A stretch of 64,000 nt of DNA from an uncultured Candidatus Saccharibacteria bacterium (GTDB lineage: Bacteria > Patescibacteriota > Saccharimonadia > CAILAD01 > JADZBC01): contig CAZRJR010000001.1 of NCBI GenBank assembly GCA_964600985.1, positions 45,319-109,318 on the forward strand. The letters are read 5' to 3'. Numbering within the stretch: position 1 is the stretch's first letter; every line of letters starts with the position of its first letter. Below the pieces are notes generated by a model. That model was not told the origin of the DNA. It saw nothing but the letters and a program-made list of their open reading frames with translations, and did no database searches. Below are positions 2,218 to 27,177 of the stretch, piece by piece. The position numbers were made by a program, and so were the translations under genes.

Positions 2218-4128
2218 GTGTCGGGAAATATGGCCAGACTACCTGTTCCTGGTAGCGATAAGGGTACCTGGGGTGAAGTACTTAATGAATTCTTATCCGT
2301 AGAACACAATGCCGACGGTACGCTGAAGCCGGGCGGTACGCTTGGTGCGTATGCTCCTAAAGCGAACCCTACTTTTACAGGTGTAGTAACGGTCCCCACT
2401 CCCACGAATGCCACTGATGCAGTTACTAAGGCGTATGCCGATAATCTGGTAGTAGGTGGCGCACCTGATGCTACAAGTAGTGCAAAAGGTCTCATTCAGC
2501 TTACTGGCGATCTCGGTGGTAGCGCGGCTAACCCTAGCGTGCCTGGCTTGGCGAGTAAAGTGCCTACCTCGCGCACAGTTAATGGCCACGCTCTCTCGGC
2601 AGACATTACGCTTAGTAAAGCAGATCTTGGCCTTGGTAGTGTAGACAACACGTCCGATGCCGGCAAGCCGGTCTCAGCCGCCACTGCCGCGGCATTGGAA
2701 GGCAAAGCAGACAAAAGTGCAGTGCCGGTAAACGTTAAGGATTATGGTGCTGTTGGGGATGGAGCTTCGAATGACACAAGTGCTTTTACAGCAGCTATAA
2801 CAGCGGCTGGCTCGACTCGTTCGATATTTGTCCCAGCCGGTACCTACAAGGTTGATCCAGACTCCATTGCTCTTAGTACGAATGCTGTGATTAAAGGTGA
2901 ATACTATGCTCGCACAATTATTATTTCATCTTCGGGTACCAAGGTGGGATCTGGTATTTCTATTCAAGGCCAAGGCGTCGAAGTGTCCAACCTTTATATT
3001 CGGGGCTACTATTCAGGCATTGAGAATTCTTACTCAAACACAAAGATCTATGACAATAAGTTGTCGTACAACGTCATAGGTATTGATTATGCCGCTAACT
3101 CTTACATAACTAAAGCTCGCGGAAACGAAATTACCTTTAATGATTTAGGCATCATAATCCGTACAAACGCACAGCCTTACCAGCTGCTTGTGACTGAGAA
3201 CACCATAGATAATAATAATGGCGTTGGGATTGCCGTATATGCGACTTCGGGTGGGTTAGTGATCGAGAATAACACCATAGAAGGAAACAGGAACTACTCG
3301 ACTAATGTAGGCTGCGGCATACTGATTAAAAGCTCTAATCTTTCGCGAATAAAGATTGATGGTAATTGGTTTGAGACCAATGGCAATCACGCCACTACTG
3401 CGGTAGATATTCTTATGCTAGCGCCCAACACCGAGCCTAGTACAGGAGCTGCATTACGCTCGGCCATTGTAGGTGTTTTACCTACAGGAGAGCAAGCAAA
3501 TTTTACAAGCGGCGGGTGTGCGTATGGTGCCGTGTCGATTACCAATAATGCCTTCATATTTACCAAGTACAATGTGGTGGTGGCTGGATATAAAACTTTG
3601 GTAGGTATTGCAGACAATAGCTTTAAGGGTGTACTAAATCTAAACAATAAGCATATTTTCCTGAATGTTCCCTCGGGCACTACCGGTATGGGTGGCGGCC
3701 GTGTTGTGATCAATGGCAATGGATACAAGAATTCTGACAATGCTGCGATTGACGCTCAGGTGTCCACTGGGATTGGCGACTCTATTGTATATGCCGACAG
3801 CGTGCTCAGCGGAGCAGGGGACATCTACATATATAACGACAACCCTGTAAATCAGATTATCCAAAAGTCCTCCACGTATACCATTACAGCTACAGACTCT
3901 ATCATTAGTGCTGACGCTACAAGTTCGCCATTTACCATTACACTCCCTAGTGCAGTTAATAATACTGGCAGGACCTATGTAGTGAAGCGTGTAAATGCTG
4001 GCGGGAATGATGTCACTCTCAGTGCTGCAGCCGCAGAGACGATAGACGGTGCTGCATCGGCAATGCTAACTGCTCAGTGGCAAACGGTAAAAGTTATATC
4101 AGATGGATCGAACTGGCTTACCGTGTAG
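2218..4128 (+). CDS. phage-tail-fibre-like surface protein with pectin-lyase-type right-handed beta-helix (paralog 1)
   Basis: 636 aa. The N-terminal ~100 aa is nearly identical in pattern to ORF 23695..25086 (LPxPGxDKGTWGEVLNExL...). It carries the phage tail-fibre repeat ANPTFTGVVTVPTPTNATDAVTKAYAD. The central region has the VKDYGAVGDGASNDTSAF motif typical of the pectate-lyase-3/tailspike beta-helix, followed by repetitive N/G-rich beta-helix coils (NNNGVGIAVYATSGGLVIENNTIEGN). Confidence 0.8.
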   Translation: MSGNMARLPVPGSDKGTWGEVLNEFLSVEHNADGTLKPGGTLGAYAPKANPTFTGVVTVPTPTNATDAVTKAYADNLVVGGAPDATSSAKGLIQLTGDLGGSAANPSVPGLASKVPTSRTVNGHALSADITLSKADLGLGSVDNTSDAGKPVSAATAAALEGKADKSAVPVNVKDYGAVGDGASNDTSAFTAAITAAGSTRSIFVPAGTYKVDPDSIALSTNAVIKGEYYARTIIISSSGTKVGSGISIQGQGVEVSNLYIRGYYSGIENSYSNTKIYDNKLSYNVIGIDYAANSYITKARGNEITFNDLGIIIRTNAQPYQLLVTENTIDNNNGVGIAVYATSGGLVIENNTIEGNRNYSTNVGCGILIKSSNLSRIKIDGNWFETNGNHATTAVDILMLAPNTEPSTGAALRSAIVGVLPTGEQANFTSGGCAYGAVSITNNAFIFTKYNVVVAGYKTLVGIADNSFKGVLNLNNKHIFLNVPSGTTGMGGGRVVINGNGYKNSDNAAIDAQVSTGIGDSIVYADSVLSGAGDIYIYNDNPVNQIIQKSSTYTITATDSIISADATSSPFTITLPSAVNNTGRTYVVKRVNAGGNDVTLSAAAAETIDGAASAMLTAQWQTVKVISDGSNWLTV

Positions 4129-4191: not shown

Positions 4192-4602
4192 CTATAGCTC
4201 GGGAAGCAGTGCATACATTGCGCTTCCCGGGAGCCGCTTTCTGAAGCCAGACTTGGCCCGAGATATGTCATTACTCTGTGGCAGGTTGATCCATGGATCC
4301 ATCCAGTGGTTGCCGTGCCTTACAAGGTAGTGCCCTGCAGGATACTTTTTTGACCTGCGAATTAATACTATCGTTCCTTCTTTATAAATATGCCCCCGTA
4401 GCTTTTTGTTTATGTATCTTGATTGGTAGCGCAGCCCATTGTTGTTTAGTGCTCTGGCAAGGTCTTTCACCCAAAACCTGTTACTCTTGGCTTGCTTTGG
4501 GCCGAGTAAATCTTCGGCTCGCTTGTAGCTAGTGTTAAGAAGGAAGGCAAAACAGGCTATTCCGCAGCCGTATTCAAACTCTTGAGTTATGCTTTTTCTC
4601 AT
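4192..4602 (-). CDS. papain-like cysteine peptidase, C39-like (BtrH-like) domain protein
   Basis: 136 aa. EYGCGIACFAFLL is a candidate Cys-containing motif and GHYLVRHGNHW a downstream His, as in the standalone Peptidase_C39_2 family. Assigned from memory. Confidence 0.4.
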   Translation of the reverse strand: MRKSITQEFEYGCGIACFAFLLNTSYKRAEDLLGPKQAKSNRFWVKDLARALNNNGLRYQSRYINKKLRGHIYKEGTIVLIRRSKKYPAGHYLVRHGNHWMDPWINLPQSNDISRAKSGFRKRLPGSAMYALLPEL

Positions 4603-6535: not shown

Positions 6536-7048
6536 CTACCAGACGAGGTAAGCGTCCCCATGAGGATCGAACGCGAGCCCTGACCCATCGATGGGCCGGA
6601 CTTCCACCTCGTAGCTGGGACGAGTCTCCTGGCTGACGAAGGGCTGCCTGAGCCACTTCTCGATACGGAGGCCGAGGTCGTTCGAGATGGCCTGCCTGCG
6701 CATCTCGTAGCCGTCTTCGCAGTCCGGGTCATCTTTGCGGACCAGCTCTGTCGCATCTCGATCGCCTGGCTGGACGTCGATCGCCCAGTCGTCGTGGTTG
6801 AAGTCCCACGGGTGCTGCCGGTGAACGCGGATCTTGACCTCGCCAGGGGTGATCTTGGTCTTGTCGACCTGACTCACGGCACGAGCAACCATCTTGGGCA
6901 GATCCAGAAGGAACCGCCGCGTGAGCTCGAAGCTGTAGGGGAAGCCCGACGTAGTGCATCCAGGGACTTGGCTGCGCCACTTCGCCTCATGGATCTGGTC
7001 TTCATCGGGCAGCCAGCTGGCTGCACAGAAAACATCAACTACGGGCAT
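6536..7048 (-). CDS. hypothetical protein on GC-rich insert
   Basis: 170-aa ORF in a visibly GC-rich block (~6400..7060) that lies between att-like repeat copies A and B. No motif recognised. Confidence 0.5.
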   Translation of the reverse strand: MPVVDVFCAASWLPDEDQIHEAKWRSQVPGCTTSGFPYSFELTRRFLLDLPKMVARAVSQVDKTKITPGEVKIRVHRQHPWDFNHDDWAIDVQPGDRDATELVRKDDPDCEDGYEMRRQAISNDLGLRIEKWLRQPFVSQETRPSYEVEVRPIDGSGLAFDPHGDAYLVW

Positions 7049-7997: not shown

Positions 7998-8043
7998 AGA
8001 CTCCCGCAAAGGGGTCTTCAATCATAAGGTCTATGGAGGGCCA
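7998..8043. repeat. att-like repeat copy C: tRNA-Lys 3' end plus downstream terminator hairpin (46 bp)
   Basis: agactcccgcaaaggggtcttcaatcataaggtctatggagggcca overlaps the last ~10 nt of tRNA-Lys. On the minus-strand transcript the hairpin is followed by a T6 tract. Confidence 0.8.
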
Positions 8044-8110
8044 GGTGGGATTCGAACCCACGACATGCTGCTTAAGAGGCAGCCGCTCTAACCAACTGAG
8101 CTACTGGCCC
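8034..8110 (-). tRNA. tRNA-Lys (anticodon CTT), CCA encoded
   Basis: The reverse complement reads GGGCCAGTAGCTCAGTTGGTTAGAGCGGCTGCCTCTTAAGCAGCATGTCGTGGGTTCGAATCCCACCTGGCCCTCCA. It folds as a cloverleaf with anticodon loop CTCTTAA and T-loop GTTCGAATC. Confidence 0.85.
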
Positions 8111-8134
8111 GCAATTGTGCGGACATATTGTGCA

Positions 8135-8211
8135 TGGTGCGCCCTGAGGGATTCGAACCCCCGGCCTTCTGATCCGAAGTCAGACGCTCTATCCAGCTGA
8201 GCTAAGGGCGC
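8135..8211 (-). tRNA. tRNA-Arg (anticodon TCG), CCA encoded
   Basis: The reverse complement reads GCGCCCTTAGCTCAGCTGGATAGAGCGTCTGACTTCGGATCAGAAGGCCGGGGGTTCGAATCCCTCAGGGCGCACCA. The anticodon loop is CTTCGGA and the D-loop has A20 (CTGGATAG), typical of Arg. Confidence 0.85.
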
Positions 8212-9693: not shown

Positions 9694-10077
9694 ATGGATC
9701 TAATTCAGCAAGGATATGAACAGAAGGGGGCGTGGGGTATCTCTACATCTATAGACTTGTACGGATGTGACGCTGAAAAAATCCGTAATGCCAAAGCTAT
9801 TGAAAATTTTGTGGTTGAGCTCTGTGATCTAATAAAAGTAACGCGGTTTGGTGAGTGTCAGGTTGTTCACTTCGGTGAAAAAGAAGAGATTGCTGGTTTC
9901 TCTATGACACAGCTTATTGAAACATCGCTTGTTTCTGCTCACTTTGCTAATCAAACAAATACAACTTACCTAGATGTTTTTTCTTGTAAATACTATAACC
10001 CGCAAATAGTTGCTGATTTCGCTAAAAAGTATTTTGAAGCCGAGAATTACGCCATGAATTATAATCTAAGAAAGTAG
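9694..10077 (+). CDS. S-adenosylmethionine-decarboxylase-fold (SpeH/SpeD class 1b-like) protein with substituted processing/catalytic residues
   Basis: 127 aa. It can be aligned by eye to B. subtilis SpeD (GCDxxKL near the N-terminus; IIETSLVSAHFANQ versus VIISESHLTIHSFPE). The Ser that becomes the pyruvoyl group (E-S-H) is Thr here, and the adjacent His and the FPE Glu are not conserved. Confidence 0.55.
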   Translation: MDLIQQGYEQKGAWGISTSIDLYGCDAEKIRNAKAIENFVVELCDLIKVTRFGECQVVHFGEKEEIAGFSMTQLIETSLVSAHFANQTNTTYLDVFSCKYYNPQIVADFAKKYFEAENYAMNYNLRK

Positions 10078-10083
10078 AATAGT

Positions 10084-11298
10084 ATGAATCCAGAAAGGCC
10101 ATCTTCCATTTCTAGCAAAGAAAAGGGCTCTACTGAGTCAGGGAGAGATATCCAGCCATCTGGGTTTGATTTTGAGGCATATCGGGTTTTGTTGGATCAA
10201 GGTGCCGTCGGTTCTCGTAAAATAGGCCTGATGGATCCAGATATGGCACAACAAGCTTTCCTAGACCAAAGGACTGTACTGGTTAACACTCAAGGAATGT
10301 CCGTACCGGCGATTGTGCCAATTGAATATGTGGAAGGGTGGGATCAGGAGCGAGCACGAAGGATTGCGCAGGAAAACGATAGCGAGGGCCAGGAAGTTTA
10401 CTACTTGGCGTTGTCGGGGGATATGATCGAACAATTTGTGCGGCAGCCCGAAGCACTCGCCGATCTGGCTTCGAAGGCGCGAGAAGGATTGAAGTTGTAC
10501 TTTGAGCATACATTGGCTCAAGACGATAAAGTGGTAGAAAACTTAGGAAGATTATTATCTGCAGCTGGTTTAAGCTGGCACGAATTACCGCTCATGGACT
10601 CCCAGGCACAGGAAGGGAGGGAGCAGGCCTCAATGTCCTTTTACGCTGCCCTAACTCATCACACTAGTGTCGAAACGACACCTCTGGAGCCAATTAGTAT
10701 TTACGAAAGATTTGAACAACTTGTTGCAGAAGGAAAATATGAAAAGTTTCCTGAGAACGGCCCAACTATTCTTGGCACACAAGACTTAGACCAACATCTT
10801 AGAGACCAGCTATGGGATTTATATGAACAAAGATTCCAAGATTTAGGAGAGAATCATCCTATTTCAATGGAGGATAATCGAGATTTCTTTGAACAACTCA
10901 TCGAAACACAAGGTACTACTTTGAGTGTGTACTTCAACGAAGGAAGGCCAGTTGCGTTTATGTTCTTTATGACTAGTCCGGAATCAATTTCTTGGATTAA
11001 TTCTGATTTTATAGAGGAGCATACAAGGGGTGAAGAGCGATTCTTGTTCTTTCCTGGTATCGTGGCACGAGCAGATGGCGTCGGGCATTATGCCGAGCCC
11101 GTTATACAGTTGCCGACTCACGTTATTTCTCAGACCAGCTTAGATTATAGAGTTTGTTTTGAGAGCACAAATCGATCAAGTGGCTATATTCCAAGACTTG
11201 TAGAGGATTATGTAAACGCAACAGCAGAGCTTAGTATCGACCCGCCTGCACCCATTGATACAACATATTATCGATGCTTAGAGGTGAAAGGGGCTTAA
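10084..11298 (+). CDS. hypothetical protein (possible acyltransferase-like C-terminal half)
   Basis: 404-aa ORF that starts 7 nt after the preceding gene. It is AT-rich like its neighbours. No confident motif. Confidence 0.5.
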   Translation: MNPERPSSISSKEKGSTESGRDIQPSGFDFEAYRVLLDQGAVGSRKIGLMDPDMAQQAFLDQRTVLVNTQGMSVPAIVPIEYVEGWDQERARRIAQENDSEGQEVYYLALSGDMIEQFVRQPEALADLASKAREGLKLYFEHTLAQDDKVVENLGRLLSAAGLSWHELPLMDSQAQEGREQASMSFYAALTHHTSVETTPLEPISIYERFEQLVAEGKYEKFPENGPTILGTQDLDQHLRDQLWDLYEQRFQDLGENHPISMEDNRDFFEQLIETQGTTLSVYFNEGRPVAFMFFMTSPESISWINSDFIEEHTRGEERFLFFPGIVARADGVGHYAEPVIQLPTHVISQTSLDYRVCFESTNRSSGYIPRLVEDYVNATAELSIDPPAPIDTTYYRCLEVKGA

Positions 11299-12242
11299 CG
11301 TACCCAGTTAACGGAGTATTTTTTCAGGAAAGCACTCGGTCTCAATAGTAACTTATGTTGCCTCAGGCCTTCTATACCCAGGTCTTGCTCGAGGTTAACA
11401 TGGGTTAGGCCGTGATCTGCCAGTAGTCCAAGTGCAGAGTAGAATAGATAATCAAATAGATAATTAAATTTATAACTGCACTTAATATGGTGAATTATCG
11501 CATAACCTTTATTCGGTAGTATAGTGGTAATTAAGAAGCCCTCTATTTTGTTGTTAATGTAGAGGCGTAAGACGTGGCAGCCTGCTCCATTCAGTGAAAT
11601 CAATCTTCGTTGCAATGCAATATTTTCAACCTCTTCAGGGTCGTTACCAAATTGATAGGCACTTTTCCAGTTTCTTAAGAGTGATATTAGCTCTTTGCCT
11701 TCTTGCCCGCCAGTCAGTTTAGTAAATGTTGTCTTGATGTTTTTTTCATAACTCTTTTTGAATGAGTTAATTTGATATCGAAGTCTTTTATATTCAGGAC
11801 CACCCAGGCTTAAAAAAGTTGGGATATGATATACGTAGTCCCAATTGTCCCTGTTTTCAGTAATAGATATAAAGTCCAAATCTATTTCGTGCATAAGACA
11901 TTCTGGCAGCATTGTTAGCATGTATGTAGATGGAGCGTTACCGATTAGCTTTTGTATGGTTTCGTTTGCTAAAGAACTTCCAAGTATACTGATGCTTGGC
12001 TCAAGCGGATTGTTGCTGAATATGTCCGTAAATTTAAAAATGACATTGTTGTTGAGCTGAGCAATCACTAAATCGTCATTTATGTTGAGCCACGTCATGA
12101 GATTTGCGAAACAGAAGTCTGCGTATGGATCAAATTTTTCGTAGAATTCTACATACCACTGACTGTCTGTGGTATCAATCGATCTGAAAGAAGGGAACAG
12201 AGGTAGGTTTCCGGGTAACATATATAGGCAAGCATAGCACAA
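11295..12242 (-). CDS. hypothetical protein, possibly tandem-GNAT aminoacyl-tRNA-dependent transferase-like (DUF2156/FemAB-like)
   Basis: 315-aa ORF convergent with, and overlapping by 4 nt, the preceding gene. The family assignment rests only on size and composition pattern and is held with low confidence. Confidence 0.4.
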   Translation of the reverse strand: MCYACLYMLPGNLPLFPSFRSIDTTDSQWYVEFYEKFDPYADFCFANLMTWLNINDDLVIAQLNNNVIFKFTDIFSNNPLEPSISILGSSLANETIQKLIGNAPSTYMLTMLPECLMHEIDLDFISITENRDNWDYVYHIPTFLSLGGPEYKRLRYQINSFKKSYEKNIKTTFTKLTGGQEGKELISLLRNWKSAYQFGNDPEEVENIALQRRLISLNGAGCHVLRLYINNKIEGFLITTILPNKGYAIIHHIKCSYKFNYLFDYLFYSALGLLADHGLTHVNLEQDLGIEGLRQHKLLLRPSAFLKKYSVNWVR

Positions 12243-12300
12243 CTCTACTCCTGTCGCTATTTAATAAGAAAAAGCTTAACTTCTTTGCTATACTTATGCT

Positions 12301-14580
12301 ATGTATATAGGCCAAGCACTCATATATGTGCCGATCGTCATCGGGGTATTTATTATTGCCTCTCTTACATATTTTCGTAGAGCAACGAACGGCCTTTTTA
12401 TGTTTTCAGTTTTTAGTCTTGTTATAGGCTGCTGGATTGGCGTACAGGGGTTAGCTCAACTCAATACATCGACAGCTAACAACTTAATGTTTATACGAGC
12501 TTCAAGCGCATTTTCTGTTTTGATTGGACTTACATTCTACTTATTTATCTTTTCTTATCTAAAGACTCCACGTAATAAAATACTAGATATTCTTATCTTC
12601 TCATCATCTTTAGTGTTTTTCGGACTAAATTGCACCGGTGTAATGATTCAAAAGGTCGAGGTTACTTCAGCAGGAATATCGGTAACAGAAGCCTCAAGCC
12701 TATACACCGCTCAGTTGATTTTTGTGGGCTTGTTGGTAATCGGGAGTCTTATAAAGCTCTTTCGCATGGCGCGCAAAGAAACTAAGGTAAATAGATTTAA
12801 GAATTACCTTATGATATTCGCTTTCGTTCAAGCGGTAGTTTTTTCTGTTGGGGCAACAATCTTTTTCCCTACTCTCGCTATCAGTCAATATGCAATCGTG
12901 GGGTCTATTTTCCTCATGGTCCTTATTATTGCGTATGCAATCATTAGACATAAGCTGTTTGATATTCGAGCTGTTGTTGCGAGAGCCCTCACTTATTTAC
13001 TTGTAATTGTCACAATATCCATTACCTATGGCTTACTGGCATTTGTACTTGTCGGTGGTTTAATCTTTAAAGACAGTCAGTTGAGCCTTGCACAGCAAGC
13101 CTTCTATGCCATTTTGGCCGTCATCTTGGCCTTTACCTTCCAGCCAATTCGCCGGTTCTTTGAGCGTGTGACCGACAAGATATTTTACCGTGACAAATAC
13201 GATCCGCAACAGCTTATAAATGCAGTGGGGCGTATACTCACAGCCGAGATTCGCCTAAATGTGCTAACAAAAGAAGTAACTAAGGTGATTGAGCAGCAAA
13301 TGCGCGTGGGTAAGGTGGACATCGTGGTGGTAAATGACAAGAATATATACTACCAAGCGCGGGTGTTGCGTGGCGATAGTAGCGAACTGGAGCTTAAGGA
13401 TCTGCAGGAGCTAGGCAAACCCATGCTGGTGGCAGACGATATGAGCACGGGCGATCGCAAAGATATTATGGACAAGTATGGCTTGCGGGTAAGTATAACC
13501 TTGCGTACCTCAGAGGAGTTCGTGGGCTACTTACTCCTGGGGGAAAAGCTCAGTGGCGATATATACAATGAGCAAGATCTAGCAGTGCTGCGAATTATTG
13601 CCAACGAGCTCGCAGTGGCGGTGCAAAACGCCAAGGCCTATACCGAAATTCAACAGTTCAACAAAACCCTGCAAGCCAAAGTGGTCTCAGCCACACGTAA
13701 GTTACGACGGGCTAATGAAGACCTCAAGGAGCTCGACCAGGCTAAGGATGAGTTTATATCGATGGCGTCGCACCAGCTGCGTACGCCGCTCACTACCGCT
13801 AAAGGCTACGTAAGCATGGTGCTCGAGGGTGACTTTGGTAAAATTGCCCCGGCTATGAAGGAGCCACTCACGCAGGCGCTCGACAGCGCGAACCGTATGG
13901 CTGGGTTGGTAAGTGATTTGCTCAACGTCAGTCGTATGGAGGCCGGCCGATTCTTTATAGATCCAACGGACGTGGATCTAAATACCGAAGTGCCAGCGGA
14001 GCTTAACCAGCTGCAGACCATGGCTGATTCTAAGAGTGTAAAGCTTATTTATCATAAGCCAGCTAAACCAGTACCAATGATGAAGCTGGATTTAGATAAA
14101 ACACGCCAGGTGATTATGAACCTAGCCGACAATGCTATTCACTACAGTGCACCACCAAACGGTGGCGGCAAGGTAGAGGTAAGCTTGGAGCTCGATGGCA
14201 AAGACATTGTGTTTAAGGTAGTGGATAATGGTATTGGTGTGCCAGAAGCTCAGCAGAAGAAATTGTTTAAAAAGTTCTTCCGGGCGGCGAATGCGCAAAA
14301 CACCCGCCCGGACGGAACCGGGCTAGGACTTTACTTAGTGAAGCGAGTGGTAGAGGATCAGGGTGGCGAATTAGTGTTTGAAAGTACTGAGGGTAAGGGC
14401 TCAACCTTCGGCTTTAGGATGCCCGTGCATAATAAAATTCACCCTAACTCTAAGGCAGCTCAAAAATTAGCTGGGAACGAGACGCAGCTGAGCCCAAGTA
14501 GTAAGGCTGAGCTACAGCCAGAACCAATGGAGGCTAAGTCGGCCAAAGTGTCGATTGCCACTAAGTCCAAGACTAAATAA
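12301..14580 (+). CDS. sensor histidine kinase with large N-terminal multi-TM sensor domain
   Basis: 759 aa with about 8 predicted TM helices at the N-terminus. It has a HisKA H-box (SHQLRTPLTTAKGY), an N-box (NLADNAIHYS) and a G-box (GTGLGLYLVKRVVEDQGGEL). No response regulator is adjacent. Confidence 0.85.
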   Translation: MYIGQALIYVPIVIGVFIIASLTYFRRATNGLFMFSVFSLVIGCWIGVQGLAQLNTSTANNLMFIRASSAFSVLIGLTFYLFIFSYLKTPRNKILDILIFSSSLVFFGLNCTGVMIQKVEVTSAGISVTEASSLYTAQLIFVGLLVIGSLIKLFRMARKETKVNRFKNYLMIFAFVQAVVFSVGATIFFPTLAISQYAIVGSIFLMVLIIAYAIIRHKLFDIRAVVARALTYLLVIVTISITYGLLAFVLVGGLIFKDSQLSLAQQAFYAILAVILAFTFQPIRRFFERVTDKIFYRDKYDPQQLINAVGRILTAEIRLNVLTKEVTKVIEQQMRVGKVDIVVVNDKNIYYQARVLRGDSSELELKDLQELGKPMLVADDMSTGDRKDIMDKYGLRVSITLRTSEEFVGYLLLGEKLSGDIYNEQDLAVLRIIANELAVAVQNAKAYTEIQQFNKTLQAKVVSATRKLRRANEDLKELDQAKDEFISMASHQLRTPLTTAKGYVSMVLEGDFGKIAPAMKEPLTQALDSANRMAGLVSDLLNVSRMEAGRFFIDPTDVDLNTEVPAELNQLQTMADSKSVKLIYHKPAKPVPMMKLDLDKTRQVIMNLADNAIHYSAPPNGGGKVEVSLELDGKDIVFKVVDNGIGVPEAQQKKLFKKFFRAANAQNTRPDGTGLGLYLVKRVVEDQGGELVFESTEGKGSTFGFRMPVHNKIHPNSKAAQKLAGNETQLSPSSKAELQPEPMEAKSAKVSIATKSKTK

Positions 14581-14598
14581 CTCTATGACCAGTGTGCA

Positions 14599-14820
14599 TT
14601 GTGCTTACGCAGCACTGGCGTTAAACTAGAACCAAATACGGAGGGTGTTATGCTGGCTTACTTTGTAGTCTCATTTGTAGTTTGCCTCGGTGTATCGAGC
14701 GCGATCATGTTGGCGGCGGATCGTAAACAGCACGTGGCAGCTACTGCCTCTTGGCTGGGCGTGGTAGTATTTTCGTTACTTGTAGCAGCTGCGCTGTCAC
14801 TTCTCAATATTGGTCGCTAA
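14599..14820 (+). CDS. small hypothetical membrane protein
   Basis: 73 aa with two hydrophobic helices, immediately downstream of the kinase. Confidence 0.3.
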   Translation: MCLRSTGVKLEPNTEGVMLAYFVVSFVVCLGVSSAIMLAADRKQHVAATASWLGVVVFSLLVAAALSLLNIGR

Positions 14821-14863
14821 GGGGTAATGGCCAGCTTGGTGTGAAAGTGCTAGACTAAGGGTT

Positions 14864-16042
14864 ATGAATAAACTCATTTCGGTTCGAAATGTAAACGTAC
14901 ATGGCAAGCGCGTGTTCTTGCGGGTGGATTTTAACGTGCCCATGGAAGGCGCCAAGATTACTGACGATCGCCGCATCGATGCTGCGGTACCTACCATAGA
15001 ATATTTGCTCGACCAGGGTGCGAGCATAATTATAGCGAGCCACTTGGGTAGGCCAGATGGCAAAGTGGTACCAGAGCTTAGTCTGGAGCCGATTGCTGCT
15101 AAGCTCGCCGAGGTGCTAGACAGAAAGGTAGAGTTTGTAGCCGAAGCAGTCGGGCCTAGCGTGCACGAGCAGGCTAGTAAACTCAAACCCGGGCAAATAC
15201 TTATGCTCGAGAACCTACGTTTTTACCCCGACGAAGAAGCTAACGGCATGGAGTTTGCTCGTGAATTAGCAAGTCTCGCCGACGTGTATGTAGATGATGC
15301 TTTTGCTTGTGTGCACAGGGCCCACGCCTCGATTGTAGGCGTGGCGGCCTTACTGCCACATGCGGCTGGGTTCTTGGTCGAAGAAGAATTCCATACATTA
15401 CATGGTTTGCTCGAGAAGCCCGAACACCCGTTCGTGGCAATCATTGGTGGGGCTAAGGTAGCTGATAAGTTTGAACTTTTAGACAACCTTCTTGGTTTGG
15501 TTGATAGTATTGTGATTGGTGGTGCGATGGCCAATACGTTTTTAATCGCGCAAGGCTATGGAGTGGGTAAGAGTGTAGCCGAACCAGAGCTCAAAGACAA
15601 AGTGACTACATTTATTACTAAGGCTGCTAAGCACGAGGTAGAGTTGGTATTACCAACCGACGTAGTGGTTAGCAAATCGCTTGACAGTAAAGAGGCCAAA
15701 ACGGTGACTGTGGACGATATTGAGGGCGATGATATGGCGCTTGATTTGGGGCCAAAGACTACGGAGGCAATTAAGAAAGTTATAGCGTCGAGCAAAACGG
15801 TGTTTTGGAATGGGCCACTTGGCTATACGGAAAACGAAGCCTTTGTTGCTAGTTCGAGCGCTGTGGCTGAAGCCATTATTACTTCTGGAACCCACTCAAT
15901 CATTGGTGGTGGGGACACATCTGGGTTCTTGGATCAATACAGTAAGCCCGATAAGTTTGGGTTTATTTCTACCGGCGGTGGGGCTAGCTTGGAGCTCTTG
16001 GCCGGCAAAGAACTACCTGGGATTGCAGCACTCCAGAAGTAA
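14864..16042 (+). CDS. pgk: phosphoglycerate kinase
   Basis: 392 aa with RVDFNVP and the hinge/GGGA motifs typical of Pgk. Confidence 0.9.
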   Translation: MNKLISVRNVNVHGKRVFLRVDFNVPMEGAKITDDRRIDAAVPTIEYLLDQGASIIIASHLGRPDGKVVPELSLEPIAAKLAEVLDRKVEFVAEAVGPSVHEQASKLKPGQILMLENLRFYPDEEANGMEFARELASLADVYVDDAFACVHRAHASIVGVAALLPHAAGFLVEEEFHTLHGLLEKPEHPFVAIIGGAKVADKFELLDNLLGLVDSIVIGGAMANTFLIAQGYGVGKSVAEPELKDKVTTFITKAAKHEVELVLPTDVVVSKSLDSKEAKTVTVDDIEGDDMALDLGPKTTEAIKKVIASSKTVFWNGPLGYTENEAFVASSSAVAEAIITSGTHSIIGGGDTSGFLDQYSKPDKFGFISTGGGASLELLAGKELPGIAALQK

Positions 16043-16360
16043 TCCATCTTCATCTTGTAGCTAATCCCGACTTTGGAGTTGGAGATATTATGCTCATCAT
16101 CCCGAGCCTTCTTCGTCACCCTACCCTCCGTGTCATTCCGGCGTAGGCCGGAATCCAGTCCTTAAATAATCTTTACTTTTGAAGATACCAAAAGTAAACA
16201 AAAGTATTTCCGACCTACTGGTTCGCATACGAGGTGCGTTCGTTCGTCTATACCCCAGAATGTCGTGCCCACTGCAAGTTTGAGTACTCTCGTGGCTCAC
16301 TCCGTCTGGATTATAGACTCCTCACTACCTGATGCCCCACGGTCAAGGCGGGGCAGGTGG

Positions 16361-17722
16361 CTACGGTAGTGCGTAAGTATTACGAATGCGGTGTAGCGCA
16401 AAGATATTACCCAGTGACTGATCGCTACCCGGCACGGTGCTAACCGCAGTGCTAAAGCCAGCTTGCTGGGCTGCGGTAATCGACACCGTATTGTATGAGC
16501 CATACGGGTAGGCAAGTGTAGTAATGCTCAGTCCAAGCTCTTGTTCGAGGCGCTGTTTCGAAGTGGTAATTTGATATACTTGATCGCCGGCGCTGAGCCC
16601 GGCGAGCGCCAGGTGGTCTATCGTGTGGGCACCAATCTCGATTAGTTCGCTGGCCACTAGGCCGCGCACCTCGTCCCAATTCATGTATGAGTCTCCGCAG
16701 GCCAAGCCGGGTGTGCGCTCTATGCCAATGCAGTACTTACTCTTCTCGCCACCGATAATAAGGTAGTAGGTGGCGCGCATTTGGTACTTTTGCAGGATGC
16801 TGAGCGCGCGCAGTTGGTCGCTATAACCATCGTCAAATGTTATCACTAATGGCTTGGGCGGCAGGGTGCAGGTTTTACGTAAGCCGCATGCTACCTGGGC
16901 CATGGTAATGGTGGTGTAACCACGCTTTTGTATAATCTGGAGTTGAGACTCGAAGTCGGTCGGCGTTTTATGATACATAACGATCGGGATAAACGTAGTG
17001 TCATGCACAGGTGCAGCAGCTTGGGCGGCTCCGGCATGCTTTGCTTGCTTGGCTTTTGCCTCAGCGAGCTCTGCAATTTTCTGATCCACGAAGGCATTGT
17101 CGGCGCCTAGTTTGCTTTGGAGTGCAGTAAGTCGCCATATAGCCTCGACCGGTTGAGCTGTAGCGAAGAGCCAATTAATGTGGTCAAGTTCATCGCTGGC
17201 GTTATAAAGCCCAGCAATAATAATGCCGTGTGCTACCTGTTCATCGGCAATGCTATGCTCAGTTAGGCTTGCCTGCTTGTAGTCCTCATAGAGGGTACTC
17301 ACGGCACTAGTGGTTTGTGCAGTACCGGGCTGAAGCACGAAAAAGTTGTGGTGCCAGCGGTGTAATCCAAATGCAATAAGCGCTGTAAGACTCGTAGCTA
17401 ATACAATGCCCCTAAAAACTGCAGTGCTAAAATATTTGCGAGGCTCCTTAGTAGATAATTGTAGAGTAGTCTCTGGTTCGGTCTGAGGTATAACGTGCTC
17501 TATGGGTTCGCCCGAGCGCACGCTTTGGGCTTCCGCCAGCTCAACTGGTGGAGTAGTAGTGATCTCTTGAGTATTCGTGAGATCTGCTTGGACCAACTCC
17601 TGGGTGTTAGGATTAACCTCTGATGGTATAGCCTCGATTTCTAAACGAGGTTTTGCGCGGTATACGGCCTTTTTGCGCGCTTTGGTTTTGCGTGATGAAT
17701 GAGTTCTTTTCGATTTTGCCAT
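16361..17722 (-). CDS. polysaccharide deacetylase (NodB-type) with basic N-terminus and TM anchor
   Basis: NodB motif 1 is TFDDGYSDQ and there is a His motif IGAHTIDH. The N-terminus is KR-rich and a TM helix (VFRGIVLATSLTALIAFGL) follows. Confidence 0.8.
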   Translation of the reverse strand: MAKSKRTHSSRKTKARKKAVYRAKPRLEIEAIPSEVNPNTQELVQADLTNTQEITTTPPVELAEAQSVRSGEPIEHVIPQTEPETTLQLSTKEPRKYFSTAVFRGIVLATSLTALIAFGLHRWHHNFFVLQPGTAQTTSAVSTLYEDYKQASLTEHSIADEQVAHGIIIAGLYNASDELDHINWLFATAQPVEAIWRLTALQSKLGADNAFVDQKIAELAEAKAKQAKHAGAAQAAAPVHDTTFIPIVMYHKTPTDFESQLQIIQKRGYTTITMAQVACGLRKTCTLPPKPLVITFDDGYSDQLRALSILQKYQMRATYYLIIGGEKSKYCIGIERTPGLACGDSYMNWDEVRGLVASELIEIGAHTIDHLALAGLSAGDQVYQITTSKQRLEQELGLSITTLAYPYGSYNTVSITAAQQAGFSTAVSTVPGSDQSLGNIFALHRIRNTYALP

Positions 17723-17791
17723 AGCCAGGGGTTAATGCATGTAACTTATATAGTTTAGCAAACTATTGCCCGGGCGCGTAGGCTACAGACG

Positions 17792-18694
17792 TTATTGCGG
17801 CTTGCCGTATATATAGCCAAAGCTTGTGGCTGGCACCCAACGCTGGCTGACTCGGTTCCAGCCAGCAAAGTTCATTTCGCTAATGAGCACGCTATTGCCT
17901 TCTATACGCTCCACGTAGGCGACGTGACCGTACCAGCCAGCCGGTGTCCAGGCAATTGCACCTGGCACAGGGATATTGCCTGTTAGCCAACCTTCGGCCT
18001 TGGCGTGCGCCATCCAGTCGCGGGCATTGCCCCAGCGGGCTCCGGTAGGTCGTCGGCTAGCTACGTAGTAGGTGCATTGGCCGTAGGCGTAGCCACCGGT
18101 TGCGTAGTATTGAAGTTGCGCCGGTGGTGATGATTTGGAACGAAATGCAGGTAGAGCGGCTGTATCCACTGTGGTTGTAGTAGTGCTGGTTGGCTCGGAC
18201 TTGGTTGGTATGTCCTCCGGTTTGGTTTCGGCCGAGGTTCTGGCGGCATCTTCCTTGGCCTGAGTTGGGCTTGAGTTAGTTGCTAGTTTGGATGATTCAG
18301 GAGGGTTAGCTTTGGCCGGTTCCTGCTCACCACCTACCATAGCTACAATGCCTGTGGGTACCGTGGCAACTTCTTGCCCTACATTTGCAACGGCGCTAGC
18401 CATGGCTAAGTCTCGCGCTACCACGTGACTCTGAGCTTGCTCCAGTACGGCAACTACCCGGGCGTTAAAGCTGTTGCTGGCCGCATTGGCGCGCTGGCTG
18501 AATTGAGTGGCGGTAGCAATCACTTCCTTGCCAAACATGGGCAAGCCCCGTTCGCCATAGTTATAAACTAAGCTGCTTGCTCGTAATACTATAGCACTGG
18601 CGCTCGCTACTAGTGCTAATAGTAAGGCAGACTTGAGCGCATGCTTGCGCTGGCGAGCCTTGGCGCGCGCTGCATCCCTCTGCTGTAAGTGCAT
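17792..18694 (-). CDS. CHAP-domain peptidoglycan hydrolase (membrane-anchored)
   Basis: The C-terminus carries CHAP motifs (GQCTYYVASRR ... GHVAYVE) and an N-terminal TM helix is present. ORF 49736..50908 is a paralog. Confidence 0.8.
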   Translation of the reverse strand: MHLQQRDAARAKARQRKHALKSALLLALVASASAIVLRASSLVYNYGERGLPMFGKEVIATATQFSQRANAASNSFNARVVAVLEQAQSHVVARDLAMASAVANVGQEVATVPTGIVAMVGGEQEPAKANPPESSKLATNSSPTQAKEDAARTSAETKPEDIPTKSEPTSTTTTTVDTAALPAFRSKSSPPAQLQYYATGGYAYGQCTYYVASRRPTGARWGNARDWMAHAKAEGWLTGNIPVPGAIAWTPAGWYGHVAYVERIEGNSVLISEMNFAGWNRVSQRWVPATSFGYIYGKPQ

Positions 18695-18784
18695 GGTATA
18701 AGTATTGATAGCGTTTTCTCCGATAGATCATCGTACCTTATCTGGCAAGCTGATTTCAAGCATAACTACGAACAAAATTCGGTA

Positions 18785-21891: not shown

Positions 21892-21893
21892 AC

Positions 21894-22169
21894 CTACGAG
21901 CTTTTTTGGACTGATTGCTTAGTTTCTTTAGTGGGTGATTCTGGGCCGGCTTTAGCTTTTTTGTGAAAGATTCCGCCGAAGAATGCACTGATTTGCTTCC
22001 AGAAAACTTTTACAAGGTACGATACGGTGGCCAAGGCGGCGATTACGATCTGTACAATACTCGATCCCATACCCGGGTCGAGGTAAGCGTGGGCTGGTTT
22101 TGGCACAACTTGCCACAGGATTAAACTTAGTATAAAAAGGTGCGACGCAAAGACTAAAATTCGTTTCAT
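21894..22169 (-). CDS. small hypothetical membrane protein
   Basis: MKRILVFASHLFILSLILWQV... is the internal Met of ORF 21894..22205. It has two hydrophobic segments and abuts the gene downstream. Confidence 0.35.
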   Translation of the reverse strand: MKRILVFASHLFILSLILWQVVPKPAHAYLDPGMGSSIVQIVIAALATVSYLVKVFWKQISAFFGGIFHKKAKAGPESPTKETKQSVQKSS

Positions 22170-22291
22170 AGTGATTCCATTTAGGTTTTTATAATTATGG
22201 ACCAAGTCGCGATTGACTTACGAGGAGGGAGAAATAGCAAATTCCTTCTTACTATTGTAGACCACTCCAGCTGAAGATCAACTTAACTGGG

Positions 22292-23689
22292 CTACGAAGG
22301 GGGCGTATAGCGGGGGCCATCGCCAACCGAGAAGATCCGCGGACTATCGCCATCGGGGAGATTGATGAGAGTTACATGGCGCCCATTCTCATACCCGCCA
22401 GCGTGGAGAAGTGCGGGGTGATAGATGGCGCCACTCTCAAAGTCATATTCGCCATCCGGCGTGTTTGGTGGGGGGCAGTTACCTACTCGAATAGCGAATT
22501 TAGATCCAGAAACGGCTTCTTGAGTTAAGTTTGAGCCGTAGAGGCCAACTGGACCATTGACGCCGCGATAGCACCACATCCACACATCGTCTCTAAGTAG
22601 GCTGAGTGTTGCAGCTACGCTCCCTACATTATTGCCGTCGTTCCAGCCCGCACCGTAGCCAAATATCTCATCGATTTGCCAGGCGGAACCATTCCACCAC
22701 ACATGGTTATGGCGTGTATCGTGCGACAGTGAGGGAATGGTTGAACTATCGTTAGCCCCTGAGCCTGTCGCTATGAAGTGAAAGTGCCCATCCTTATCTA
22801 CACACCTGCCACCCGCCGTGGCTCCACCGATACTAACTCCACCTACTTTAATCGCGGCTGCGCCAACGCCAGCTACACCATCGAGCGTAGTACGGTAGGT
22901 AAATGGTGCGGTAACTGCTTCACCCAATACATTCTCCCAGGTACTACCCTTGTCGTGGCTGCGCACATAAAAGTATTCGGACATGGTGGAAGGTGTGCTG
23001 GTCGACATACGCCATACATATACACAGTGCAATGTGTCTTGGAGATCTACGAACGAATGAAGTAAATAGGCGCGGTCAGGAATATCGTCAGTGTCGGCTG
23101 CGTTATCCACGCCTAGATTTGGCGTAGTCATAATTTCGCCCGTGCCCACACAGGGCTGCCAAGTATCTCCAGGATTTGGTCCGAGTCGCCACATAGTCTG
23201 GTCGCGACCAACCGGGTTGGCAGTATCTGACTGATCCTGGTGCCATATGAGCGTGCCATCCGAGAACACCTCGTAAGCCTGGTAGGTAGTATAATTAGCG
23301 CCCGAGGTAAGCCAGTTAGCTGGGTTTGGTGCTTGGGCCCAGCTGGATATGTTATGCGGGCTCGTTGATTTTATGTACTTCATGGGTTGCTGGTGGCCGT
23401 TTCCGGATATGTGTATGTAGCCCTGGGCATCTACTGCTAAAGCTGCCGCGAAGTGTGAGTCCGAAACTTCAATTGGCCCAAAGGTAGCCGAGGCGGTTCC
23501 TGGCGTAGCTACATTGGTTACGTCTACGGTTGTCCACGAGGTACTGGTGCGCGGCCGTTGACAAACCAATAGCCGCCAGTCAACAGTAGTAACCAGGCAG
23601 TACTCGTAGTTGGCGGTGCGCCAAACGGTCGGCCAAGCCGAGGCAGTACCGTTGCGAGCGTTGCCGAGGGCTGTTGCGTAGCCAGCCAT
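22292..23689 (-). CDS. BNR/Asp-box repeat beta-propeller protein (sialidase-like glycosidase fold)
   Basis: 465 aa. SHDKGSTW is a canonical Asp-box (SxDxGxTW). The Trp/Gly/Asp-rich repetitive composition fits a propeller. It starts 5 nt after the stop of the fibre-like gene upstream. Confidence 0.6.
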   Translation of the reverse strand: MAGYATALGNARNGTASAWPTVWRTANYEYCLVTTVDWRLLVCQRPRTSTSWTTVDVTNVATPGTASATFGPIEVSDSHFAAALAVDAQGYIHISGNGHQQPMKYIKSTSPHNISSWAQAPNPANWLTSGANYTTYQAYEVFSDGTLIWHQDQSDTANPVGRDQTMWRLGPNPGDTWQPCVGTGEIMTTPNLGVDNAADTDDIPDRAYLLHSFVDLQDTLHCVYVWRMSTSTPSTMSEYFYVRSHDKGSTWENVLGEAVTAPFTYRTTLDGVAGVGAAAIKVGGVSIGGATAGGRCVDKDGHFHFIATGSGANDSSTIPSLSHDTRHNHVWWNGSAWQIDEIFGYGAGWNDGNNVGSVAATLSLLRDDVWMWCYRGVNGPVGLYGSNLTQEAVSGSKFAIRVGNCPPPNTPDGEYDFESGAIYHPALLHAGGYENGRHVTLINLPDGDSPRIFSVGDGPRYTPPS

Positions 23690-23694
23690 GTGGC

Positions 23695-25086
23695 CTACGC
23701 CCTATGAAGCTTTACTACTGCCGAATTGAGTACCATGTCTATCTGTGCGCCAGTCGTAGAGAAGGTGGTATAGGCACGAATAGTGTGAGTTCCCGATTGA
23801 TCAATGCTCGATGTTGCCGAGCCGACCGATGTAGTACCGGTGACCGCCCATCCAGCAGTTGAACCGTTGGAGAGGTGGAAGATGCCCGAACTTGATTGTG
23901 TGCTAAGGCTCGAACCGATTACTATTTCGATAGCAGCACGCCATTTGCGTCGATCGGCATTGGCGGCTACACTCGTCATGGTATCAGTCATAACAAGCGT
24001 GTCGGCAATGTAGAGTCGAAAACCAAGATCTATGGCAGAACCCGAATCATTGTTAAATGTACCGGCTAAGGTGAGTTCAATTACATCACCAGTTTGTAGC
24101 TTTCCACTCGCGACTGAGTATGAGTACAGGTCACCATTAGAGGTGACAGTGCTTGGTGTGGCGCTGGAATCGAGTACATGGGTACCGCTCGAATCTACAT
24201 ACGACTTGGTGGTAACGTCGTTTGCATCCACGGGTGTAGCGGCCGATAGTATGGTGAAACGACCAGTTGCCGAGGAGCTCATAAACGCCGAGCCGTTAGC
24301 TGTGGTTATGCCTAGTCCTGGTGTTCCAAATGCGTTACCAAGCCCTGCGTAGTAGCCTGTGGGTACATCGGTAGGGTAGGCTAGTACCGAGCCTGCTCCA
24401 ACTGTAACCACTCCATTACCACTGGGGTCTACAGTGAGGTTACCCGTCATGGTGCCGCCAGACTTTTGAAGACTCGACGTGAACTCAGACTCATTCACAC
24501 TAATGGTAGATATACCAGTAACTGGTGCAGATATGTCTATGCCGGCACCCGCTACGAGCTCTGGCGCACCGAGCTGCGAGTTTACATATTGCTTGGTGGT
24601 GGCGTCGGTGGCATTAACTGGTTCGGGTACGGTAACTGTGCCGGTAAAGGTGGGGCTTGCTAGGGGGGCTTTGCTGGCTAGATCACTGGTAAGGTTGGCT
24701 ATCTTGGACTGAGCAATCGCCGCACTACTGTTTACGTTGGCATCCACAATTGCATTGGCTGCTATTTGCGGACTGTCCGCAGTGCCGGCTAAGTCGCCTG
24801 CCAATTGAATCTTGCCCTTCGAGGAGGTAGTGGCATCGGCCACTCCCGAGGAAACAAGCCCATCGGCGTAGGCTTTGGTAACGGCCTGATTGGCACTGGT
24901 GGGTGTAGGTACAGTTACACTACCGGTAAAAGTAGGGTTGGCAAGCGGCGCATAGCTAGCCAGCGTACCACCCGACTTAAGCGTACCGTCGCTATTATGC
25001 TCTACGCCAAGGTACTCATTAAGGACTTCTCCCCAAGTGCCTTTGTCGCCTCCTGGCTGCGGTAACCGTGCCAACTCCACCTCCAT
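23695..25086 (-). CDS. phage-tail-fibre-like surface protein (paralog 2)
   Basis: 463 aa. Its N-terminus (LARLPQPGGDKGTWGEVLNEYLGVEHNSDGTLKSGGTLASYAP) matches ORF 2218..4128. It has three tail-fibre repeats of the form (A/S)NPTFTG.VTVP.P...A.TK.Y(A/V)(D/N), with Ser/Thr/Gly-rich beta-strand regions after them. Confidence 0.75.
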   Translation of the reverse strand: MEVELARLPQPGGDKGTWGEVLNEYLGVEHNSDGTLKSGGTLASYAPLANPTFTGSVTVPTPTSANQAVTKAYADGLVSSGVADATTSSKGKIQLAGDLAGTADSPQIAANAIVDANVNSSAAIAQSKIANLTSDLASKAPLASPTFTGTVTVPEPVNATDATTKQYVNSQLGAPELVAGAGIDISAPVTGISTISVNESEFTSSLQKSGGTMTGNLTVDPSGNGVVTVGAGSVLAYPTDVPTGYYAGLGNAFGTPGLGITTANGSAFMSSSATGRFTILSAATPVDANDVTTKSYVDSSGTHVLDSSATPSTVTSNGDLYSYSVASGKLQTGDVIELTLAGTFNNDSGSAIDLGFRLYIADTLVMTDTMTSVAANADRRKWRAAIEIVIGSSLSTQSSSGIFHLSNGSTAGWAVTGTTSVGSATSSIDQSGTHTIRAYTTFSTTGAQIDMVLNSAVVKLHRA

Positions 25087-25210: not shown

Positions 25211-25555
25211 GTGGAGAGAATGAAGCGGGTAGGGCAGATTCTAGGAATATTGGTTGCTAGTTTGGTGCTATGCTCCTGGTGTGCAGTGCCAACTGCAGCG
25301 CGGGCCGACAATAGCTATTCGTGTGGCACCTATAGCGCGGGCGATTACCAAGCTGGCTCGTGCGATGCGGGTGTTGTGGACCAGGTGACCCAGCCAATTA
25401 CGAACTTTATAAACAACACACTACCGGCAACTGGTACCACCATTCCGGTATTTATAGGTGCAGCCGTAGTCACACTCGGCGGGCTTGGGGTGTATCTGGT
25501 TCTCAAAAGGCGTCGTAAGAATTCTGAGCAGGAAAACGTTTCAATTGAGGGTTAG
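25211..25555 (+). CDS. small LPXTG cell-wall-anchored surface protein (sortase substrate)
   Basis: 114 aa. It has an N-terminal signal peptide and the C-terminal sorting signal LPATG, followed by a hydrophobic segment and the KRRRK tail. Confidence 0.7.
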   Translation: MERMKRVGQILGILVASLVLCSWCAVPTAARADNSYSCGTYSAGDYQAGSCDAGVVDQVTQPITNFINNTLPATGTTIPVFIGAAVVTLGGLGVYLVLKRRRKNSEQENVSIEG

Positions 25556-26825: not shown

Positions 26826-26946
26826 GTTTTCCAGGAGGCACATGGCCGTCCCTTTCATGATCGTCTTGGATGGGTGCGAACTGACAGAACTTAACGTTCG
26901 TCGTAATAATAGCATAAAAATAATAAATTGTCAAGACTGGTGATCC

Positions 26947-27102: not shown

Positions 27103-27177
27103 TGGTGATCCCGCGGGGAATCGAACCCCGATTGCCAGGATGAAAACCTGGTGTCCTAACCGTTAGACGACGGGACC
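27103..27177 (-). tRNA. tRNA-Glu (anticodon TTC), CCA encoded
   Basis: The reverse complement reads GGTCCCGTCGTCTAACGGTTAGGACACCAGGTTTTCATCCTGGCAATCGGGGTTCGATTCCCCGCGGGATCACCA. It is closely similar in architecture to E. coli tRNA-Glu, and the anticodon loop is TTTTCAT. Confidence 0.85.

Follow-up and report, generated by a model that had tools for sequence, protein, structure and literature searches.

Why should genes of phage fiber type stand among the housekeeping genes of a bacterium? The question is raised by a 64-kb stretch of contig CAZRJR010000001.1 from an uncultured Candidatus Saccharibacteria bacterium (assembly GCA_964600985.1), called the window in the following. Two of its genes, ORF1 (2230..4128, plus strand, 632 amino acids (aa)) and ORF2 (23695..25074, minus strand, 459 aa), encode proteins with the architecture of phage receptor-binding proteins (RBPs), and within the 64 kb neither lies inside a prophage. 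The bacterium can reasonably be taken for an episymbiont, and apart from type IV pili and a few adhesins, little is known of how ultrasmall epibionts choose and breach their hosts (PMC10633639, PMC11623550). Our answer, which we hold tentatively, is that ORF1 and ORF2 are retained, functional phage-type fibers that bind or cleave glycans and are used by the epibiont itself, probably against the envelope of an actinobacterial host. They would then be functional chromosomal members of a large family of phage receptor-binding type that Saccharimonadales have retained and expanded.

ORF1 is a mosaic of phage receptor-binding type

The first-pass annotation of this DNA, made from the letters and their translated reading frames, had placed the two genes at 2218..4128 and 23695..25086. 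Both exist, with ORF2 located on the minus strand and starting four codons later than given; for ORF1, the GTG at 2218 lies four codons upstream of an ATG at 2230. Ribosome-binding sites of the GGAG type precede ATG 2230 (GAGAGGAG) and TTG 25074 (GGAGGTGGAG), and the database copies of the two proteins, P0001 (632 aa, 100% identical to ORF1) and P0121 (459 aa), agree with these positions. ATG 2230 and TTG 25074 are therefore likely to be the true starts, so that the N-terminal module shared by the two proteins (N-module) opens at residue 1 with M-A-R-L-P, as it does across the family described below.

In ORF1 the N-module is followed by fiber repeats, a putative beta-helix enzyme, and a C-terminal tip domain; residue numbers of these domains are given in a 636-aa numbering counted from GTG 2218. 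The N-module (2230..2343, residues 5-42) is an unnamed conserved N-terminal unit of 38 aa, MARLPVPGSDKGTWGEVLNEFLSVEHNADGTLKPGGTL. The fiber-shaft repeats and linker (2344..2727, residues 43-170) carry the motifs NPTFTG..VTVPTPT..DAVTKAYAD, APDATSSAKG.IQL.GDL, and LGLGSVDNTSD..KPVS. DUF5907 (PF19264) reached 25.1 bits on ORF1, just under its cut-off of 27 bits, residues 71-196 matched PHROGs models of minor tail, tail fiber, and virion structural proteins, and a tblastn search with the shaft found tail proteins of Gordonia, Vibrio, and E. coli phages. The repeat had initially been read as a signature of lambdoid or T-even side-tail fibers; Pfam recognizes it as DUF5907 and PHROGs models of tail proteins match it, but the assignment was too specific, as no Pfam repeat family of lambda or T-even phages matched.

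The central part of ORF1 (2728..3852, residues 171 to about 545) is a right-handed parallel beta-helix of the pectate-lyase-3/tailspike-depolymerase type and thus a putative polysaccharide-cleaving domain. It matched PF12708 with E = 1e-12 (48.7 bits, cut-off 27) and PF13229 with E = 7.7e-11 (42.3 bits, cut-off 25.9). The AlphaFold2 model had a predicted local distance difference test score (pLDDT) of >90 across residues 170-480, and Foldseek aligned it in the PDB (E = 2e-8 for beta-helix lyases, epimerases, and tailspikes) with alginate epimerases and lyases, GH87 glucanases, the RbmB lyase, the tailspikes of Sf6, HK620, and Det7, and phi29 gp12. With profile scores above cut-off and a matching fold, ORF1 belongs to the pectate-lyase-3/right-handed beta-helix superfamily, and the modeled beta-helix fold can be taken as certain; both the pectate-lyase-type helix and the structural likeness to tailspikes that had been anticipated were thus found. 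The C-terminal tip domain (3853..4128, residues about 546-636) comprises about 90 aa and is of a kind widespread at the C terminus of viral RBPs. AlphaFold2 confidence over this domain was low.

ORF2 is one half of a two-gene cassette

ORF2 consists of the N-module, two rounds of fiber repeats, and a lectin-like beta-sandwich tip. Its N-module (24961..25074, minus strand), (M)ARLPQPGGDKGTWGEVLNEYLGVEHNSDGTLKSGGTL, is 56-62% identical to the N termini of proteins of the Streptomyces phages BRock and GiJojo, and DUF5907 scored 38.5 bits (E = 1.3e-9), above the 27-bit cut-off. The C-terminal beta-sandwich (23695..24186, minus strand, about residues 301-463, pLDDT 70-88) is a putative glycan-binding tip. 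In the PDB it found weak matches (E ~1e-3) to PL7 lyases, the CBM2 of the phage J-1 Dit protein, and galectins; matches in BFVD were much stronger, with Caudovirales proteins down to E = 6.5e-11, among them the C-terminal part of the KP34 capsule depolymerase.

A beta-propeller protein of the BNR_4 type (22292..23689, minus strand) starts 5 nucleotides downstream of ORF2. This glycosidase- or tailspike-like protein matched PF15892 (E = 1.3e-22) and phrog_23037 (E = 6.7e-15), and across 69% of its length it shares 24% identity with the Klebsiella phage MY01 tail spike. With it, the window holds three genes of phage receptor-binding type instead of two. A pair of an ORF2-like gene and a BNR_4 gene directly behind it recurs in another small-genome chromosome (loci L122 and L123), among the genes for TsaE, TsaD, and RNase Y, and BNR_4 recurs solely beside this ORF2-like subfamily. 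ORF2 is therefore a member of a two-gene cassette, for which the earlier label "orphan" is inexact, and it is probably coexpressed with the adjacent propeller enzyme.

ORF2 and BNR_4 also head a long codirectional run of envelope-related genes on the minus strand (16361-25074), in which they are followed in order by genes for a 103-aa membrane protein, a 470-aa protein without a Pfam match, a sulfatase/LtaS-like protein, a CHAP hydrolase, and a polysaccharide deacetylase. Divergent from ORF2, a gene at 25211-25555 encodes a 114-aa protein with an LPXTG-type sortase signal, which indicates that the genome has sortase-anchored surface proteins; the fiber proteins carry no such signal.

ORF1 and ORF2 are old paralogs with ordinary composition

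The first-pass annotation had described a nearly identical N-terminal module of about 45 aa in the two proteins. The module is real, but the length was set too short: BLASTP aligned 108 N-terminal residues, of which 76 (70%) are identical (E = 2e-46). Within the N-module itself the amino acid identity is 82%, with a nonsynonymous divergence (dN) of 0.15 over the first 38 codons, and at the DNA level just 64% of the shared region is identical. Synonymous sites between the two N termini are saturated. Together with the low dN, this result indicates that the N termini are old paralogs under purifying selection, and the saturation and the low DNA identity rule out a recent duplication or gene conversion.

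The base composition of both genes lies inside the spread of the window, which has a mean GC content of 0.50 and a GC content at third codon positions (GC3) of 0.525 +/- 0.10. The values are 0.47 (GC) and 0.43 (GC3) for ORF1 and 0.53 and 0.49 for ORF2. Since both genes are intact and their GC3 falls within the window range, of the two origins proposed initially, domestication fits better than decay of a prophage.

The N-module defines a very large family

The N-module has the consensus MARLPxPGxDxGxWGxxLNxFLxVEHNxDGTLK and a length of 33-38 residues. A phmmer search of 1.84 billion cluster representatives found it in 5,082 proteins at E <= 0.001, and in about 140 of the best 150 hits the match spanned residues 1-40. 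Among 120 homologs of ORF1, about 90 carried the N-module at residue 1 with 61-87% identity, followed by downstream parts that vary. Pfam, NCBIfam, and the PDB held no counterpart, and the only PDB matches of the N-module profile were spurious cyanovirin hits to "DGTLK." A relation to the phage N-terminal unit Mtd_N (PF18454) was rejected (hhalign probability 0.2%), and a weak likeness to six FG-GAP-like repeats of the RHS/YD-type protein P0315 (2,065 aa) is probably due to chance. We found no paper that describes the N-module or this fiber family, and none that mentions DUF5907 or links Saccharibacteria to chromosomal proteins of tail-fiber type. A family of this size that lacks a Pfam or PDB entry is worth defining in its own right.

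Three metagenome proteins (P0222, P0224, and P0225) carry two or three N-modules in tandem, and the module is therefore an autonomous folding unit and not a cleaved leader. The specific idea of a double-glycine leader cut by the C39-like neighbor of ORF1 was rejected as well, because family members do not consistently keep the "GG" behind the module and the peptidase match falls short of its cut-off. In monomer models the module formed a helix (residues 17-29) and a short strand with pLDDT values of 70-80. It could serve as an anchor, an export tag, or a cap that nucleates trimers.

The domains found in the list of homologs comprised beta-helix, K1-lyase_C, GDSL esterase, GDPD, BppL_N, PTR, Phage_tail_C, Gly_rich_2, and PF13884, which we take to be Peptidase_S74. 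All of these partner domains are typical of phage RBPs, and most occur in proteins that bear the N-module; K1-lyase_C (in P0005), Mtd_N, and PF13884 came from homologs of the shaft or the beta-helix that have no N-module. Nine metagenome proteins (P0143, P0154, P0155, P0161, and P0170-P0174) combine DUF5907 shaft repeats and PF13884 with a classical N-terminal signal peptide. They represent a different, Sec-exported use of the same fiber shaft, nearer to the design of the Bdellovibrio MAT fibers discussed below. A related signal-peptide protein with other domains, P0211, has Bacteroidota as its source name.

Saccharimonadales carry the family in several chromosomal copies outside recognizable phage loci

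In the window, Pfam scans of 46 ORFs revealed no capsid, terminase, portal, tape-measure, or integrase gene, as had been stated before; apart from the fiber genes, just housekeeping and cell-envelope genes were present. A scan of GTDB species genomes with one peptide pattern, which biases the result toward this N-module subtype, gave 202 confirmed matches to the N-module. The best 80 of these came nearly all from metagenome-assembled genomes (MAGs) of Saccharimonadales, in which two to five or more loci per genome were found, with four in each of two MAGs. The module thus forms a wider family, which is multicopy in Saccharimonadales; it is not specific to one genome and also occurs in phages. 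In locus L077 of a Saccharibacteria MAG (10001-19278), five N-module genes lie in tandem, with almost identical N termini and differing C-terminal parts.

Around the 80 Saccharimonadales loci (about 1.4 Mb), clustering of the neighboring genes identified no conserved partner gene. Some copies lie next to core genes, directly after the rplKAJL operon or, in L010, with rplKAJL and dnaX. Within 10 kb of these approximately 80 chromosomal copies no tail or capsid homolog was detected, and resemblance to viral contigs was confined to the module genes and adjacent fiber-like genes. Judging from these neighborhoods, the chromosomal N-module genes appear to lie outside prophages. Homologs of the window's DUF1801, C39-like, and BNR_4 neighbors were absent from the 80 loci, and the ORF1-type C-terminal domain recurred at the C terminus of other Saccharimonadales module proteins.

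Relatives of ORF1 point to phages of Actinobacteria

The N-module was also present in 35 IMG/VR contigs with GC contents from 34% to 70%. In phage contigs the N-module gene lies inside codirectional tail clusters. In L092-L095 and L099 it immediately follows the tape-measure gene, in L086 it is surrounded by tail and tail-fiber genes, and in L104 it comes after a minor tail protein gene. The module heads proteins of two Streptomyces phages, gp186 of BRock (L002) and gp34 of GiJojo (L004). In these 115-kb phages the N-module gene is placed within a large array of tRNA genes, remote from those of the tail. In BRock, the start annotated for the coding sequence overlaps a tRNA-Lys gene, and the real start is probably the downstream M-T-R-L-P.

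The closest relatives of the ORF1 beta-helix outside the module family, P0004 and P0006, come from genuine phage contigs, where their genes closely follow the capsid gene. Over ~370 aa, P0004 shares 58% of its residues with the ORF1 beta-helix, and its contig (L120, 69% GC) encodes a capsid protein 72% identical to those of Arthrobacter globiformis phages; P0006 is 44% identical and stems from an SU10-like podophage contig. At their extreme C termini, minor tail proteins of Arthrobacter and Microbacterium phages share 39-47% identity with the C-terminal domain of ORF1; among them is gp41 of phage Lifes, encoded two genes after the tape-measure gene. A search with this domain returned 43 phage records, 27 of them from actinophages, which included all best hits, so that by sequence the closest cultured relatives of the ORF1 tip domain are actinophages. 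Taken together, the matches of P0004 and of the C-terminal domain link the two working parts of ORF1 to phages of soil Actinobacteria of the Micrococcales type. In culture, Saccharibacteria grow on Actinobacteria (PMC10633639), and binding and infection of a Saccharibacterium by a prophage of such a host have been described (PMC13578794); both findings make an exchange of modules and a shared target glycan plausible.

Possible roles of the fiber proteins

Each protein consists of the conserved N-module, phage-fiber shaft repeats, and an exchangeable working part at the end, in ORF1 a putative beta-helix polysaccharide depolymerase with a receptor-binding-type tip and in ORF2 a lectin-like beta-sandwich. 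By analogy with phage tailspikes, the proteins would probably form trimers, bind an envelope glycopolymer of another cell, and cleave it locally; trimer formation, enzymatic activity, target glycan, and extracellular location of ORF1 and ORF2 are inferred. Because the nearest phage relatives of the enzyme and the tip of ORF1 belong to Arthrobacter and Microbacterium phages, the target is most likely a wall or capsule glycan of an actinobacterial host. The idea in the first-pass annotation that such proteins recognize and digest the host surface receives indirect support from the actinophage-like beta-helix and C-terminal domain.

Several observations weigh against a use by the epibiont itself. 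A hydropathy scan and a reading of the termini detected no signal peptide, membrane helix, twin-arginine motif, or sortase signal in ORF1, ORF2, or BNR_4; the maximum hydropathy over 19 residues was 1.1-1.5, and the N terminus of ORF1 and ORF2 contains one Arg, lacks a hydrophobic region, and does not form a canonical Tat signal. This is the pattern expected of proteins that are assembled in the cytoplasm onto a virion, and it lends no support to the cell-surface location suggested in the first-pass annotation. The N-module genes of phage contigs lie in tail clusters, and the module may therefore be no more than an element for docking to virions. Matches to the ORF1 C-terminal domain extend to haloarchaeal tailed viruses and to viruses of E. 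coli, Microcystis, and Thermocrinis, which argues for a general receptor-binding tip and not for a marker specific to Actinobacteria. Finally, the absence of phage genes applies to 64 kb of the genome, and tail-like structural genes may lie elsewhere.

With regard to export, tatC, often together with tatA, was located one or two genes from N-module genes in six loci (L007, L031, L033, L049, L077, and L122), in codirectional, divergent, and convergent arrangements. This adjacency could be a hint of the export of folded fibers or could reflect inherited synteny. In a more specific version of epibiont use, possible although we consider it somewhat unlikely, soil Saccharimonadales would have taken over the whole receptor-binding toolkit of phages to recognize and open actinobacterial hosts, trading tips with the actinophages of the same hosts. 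A single conserved N-module would then carry depolymerase, esterase, phosphodiesterase, or lectin tips that can be swapped, and because the fibers fold like phage spikes and lack a Sec signal, their export in the folded state would need an unconventional route, one of which is hinted at by the adjacency of tatA and tatC.

The main competing explanation, in our estimate an unlikely one, is that ORF1 and ORF2 are receptor-binding fibers that equip, in trans, a phage-derived particle whose genes lie in another part of the genome; a tailocin, an unlinked prophage, or a particle resembling a gene transfer agent would qualify. With the N-module as a shared adaptor, different fibers could be fitted to one baseplate, and the particles would assemble in the cytoplasm and leave by lysis. 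Such a particle would account for the missing secretion signals, for the position of phage-contig N-module genes beside tape-measure, minor tail, and tail-fiber genes, and for the many paralogs with one N terminus and different tips, as in multifiber phages; RcGTA provides a precedent for fiber and spike genes that are separate from the structural cluster. It is difficult to reconcile with the lack of tail or capsid homologs both within 10 kb of the chromosomal copies and in the window. Moreover, the neighbors of the module genes in different phage groups share no protein fit to be a universal docking partner, tandem N-modules would be odd for a docking plug, and the literature that we searched reports no such particle for these genomes of 0.5-1 Mb.

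A role on the cell's own surface or in defense appears improbable. ORF1 and ORF2 would either remodel the extracellular polysaccharide of their own cell or act as decoys that rival the fibers of an infecting phage for its tail docking site and thereby spoil the progeny virions. Such roles would fit the position of ORF2 and BNR_4 at the head of the run of envelope genes, with its sulfatase/LtaS-like protein, CHAP hydrolase, and polysaccharide deacetylase, and the use of the N-module by proteins of phage tail clusters. In addition, a known TM7 phage, DolZOral124, has pectate-lyase spikes whose beta-helix start resembles that of ORF1 (40.6% over residues 163-257). However, the spikes of this phage carry an unrelated Mtd_N-type N terminus instead of the N-module, and the closest relative of the ORF1 enzyme was found in an Arthrobacter-type and not in a Saccharibacteria phage contig. 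The missing export signal also counts against an enzyme of the own surface, and the decoy function is without precedent.

That ORF1 and ORF2 are functionless leftovers of decayed prophages is very improbable: every domain is of phage type and high-GC islets beside tRNA genes of the window suggest past integrations, but the frames are intact (632 and 459 aa), the composition matches the genome, the paralogs are old and under purifying selection in a multicopy family conserved across many species with reduced genomes, a two-gene cassette has been kept between genomes, and no other phage gene is nearby, so that none of the disrupted frames, atypical composition, relaxed selection, or phage debris of a decayed prophage was observed.

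If the fibers are used by the epibiont itself, a multicopy RBP-like family whose tips are shared with the phages of the presumed hosts would supply concrete candidates for determinants of host range. Matching fiber tips to actinophage tips would then make host predictions testable for Saccharibacteria that have not been cultured.

Other features of the window

The genes identified by the Pfam scans included those for PGK, TIM, MurB, a Mur ligase, MetRS, AlaRS, LeuRS, UvrD, Obg, FtsA, and YceG, and among the envelope genes were CHAP/LysM hydrolases, the sulfatase/LtaS-like protein, and the polysaccharide deacetylase. The order Mur ligase - LeuRS - p157 is common to the window and Saccharibacteria UBA5148, with protein identities of 38-59%, and the nearest relatives of the fiber family likewise belong to Saccharimonadales. 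The LeuRS (58345-61743; 1,132 aa) has an unusual insertion, a NUDIX domain (residues 613-716) between the catalytic and the anticodon-binding parts. ORF1 had been reported to lie between a DUF1801 gene and a C39-like peptidase gene. The DUF1801 gene does adjoin ORF1, whereas the match of the other neighbor (4192..4602) to Peptidase C39 was weak (18.8 bits, E = 0.0015, below the 22-bit cut-off) and such a gene does not recur beside family members.

Three small ORFs (6536-7048, 26334-26915, and 27625-28107) have a GC content of 0.61-0.64 and a GC3 of 0.77-0.86, above the window mean, and gave no Pfam match. They adjoin genes for tRNA-Lys/Arg and tRNA-Glu (at 8034-8211 and 27103-27177). The three ORFs may have been acquired recently from a high-GC source, for example an actinobacterial host, or may be spurious ORFs in foreign noncoding DNA. 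In the high-GC stretch from 25.6 to 29 kb, an Rfam scan and blastn matched nothing except the tRNA. Promoter and terminator scans did not exceed chance.

Comparison with known systems

Short conserved N-terminal units comparable to the N-module are known from phage fibers as Mtd_N and BppL_N (25-37 aa). Of the homologous shaft proteins without an N-module, some begin with Mtd_N, and a number of family members have segments of the BppL_N type embedded in their shafts; neither unit has a detectable relation to the N-module. A separation of fiber genes from the particle genes is found in RcGTA, whose fiber and spike genes lie away from the main structural cluster. ORF1 and ORF2 are likewise located away from any structural cluster and lack secretion signals, but for these genomes no structural cluster is known or was seen.

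The tailspike and tail-fiber RBPs of phages (Sf6, HK620, Det7, phi29 gp12, and the minor tail proteins of actinophages) have the same order of parts as ORF1 and ORF2, namely, a short N-terminal unit, a shaft, a beta-helix or lectin-like tip, and a C-terminal domain, with matching folds. In contrast to these RBPs, ORF1 and ORF2 are encoded in the chromosome among housekeeping genes, in a family of dispersed multiple copies without linked virion genes; their phage relatives lie inside phage genomes beside tail or baseplate genes, and ORF1 and ORF2 do not.

The MAT fibers of Bdellovibrio bacteriovorus are phage-fiber-like mosaic adhesins that serve prey recognition on the cell surface; they have a signal peptide, a conserved beta-rich N-terminal domain of ~130 aa, and varied tips that include lectin-like, TNF-like, and beta-helix types (PMC10769870). 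The N-module family resembles them in being chromosomal, multicopy, and mosaic, with a conserved N-terminal end and variable C-terminal tips. It differs in that ORF1 and ORF2 carry neither a signal peptide nor the ~130-aa domain and instead begin at residue 1 with an unrelated module of 33-38 aa that is also used by phages. The proposed domestication of phage fibers by a bacterium living on other bacteria would be of a known kind.

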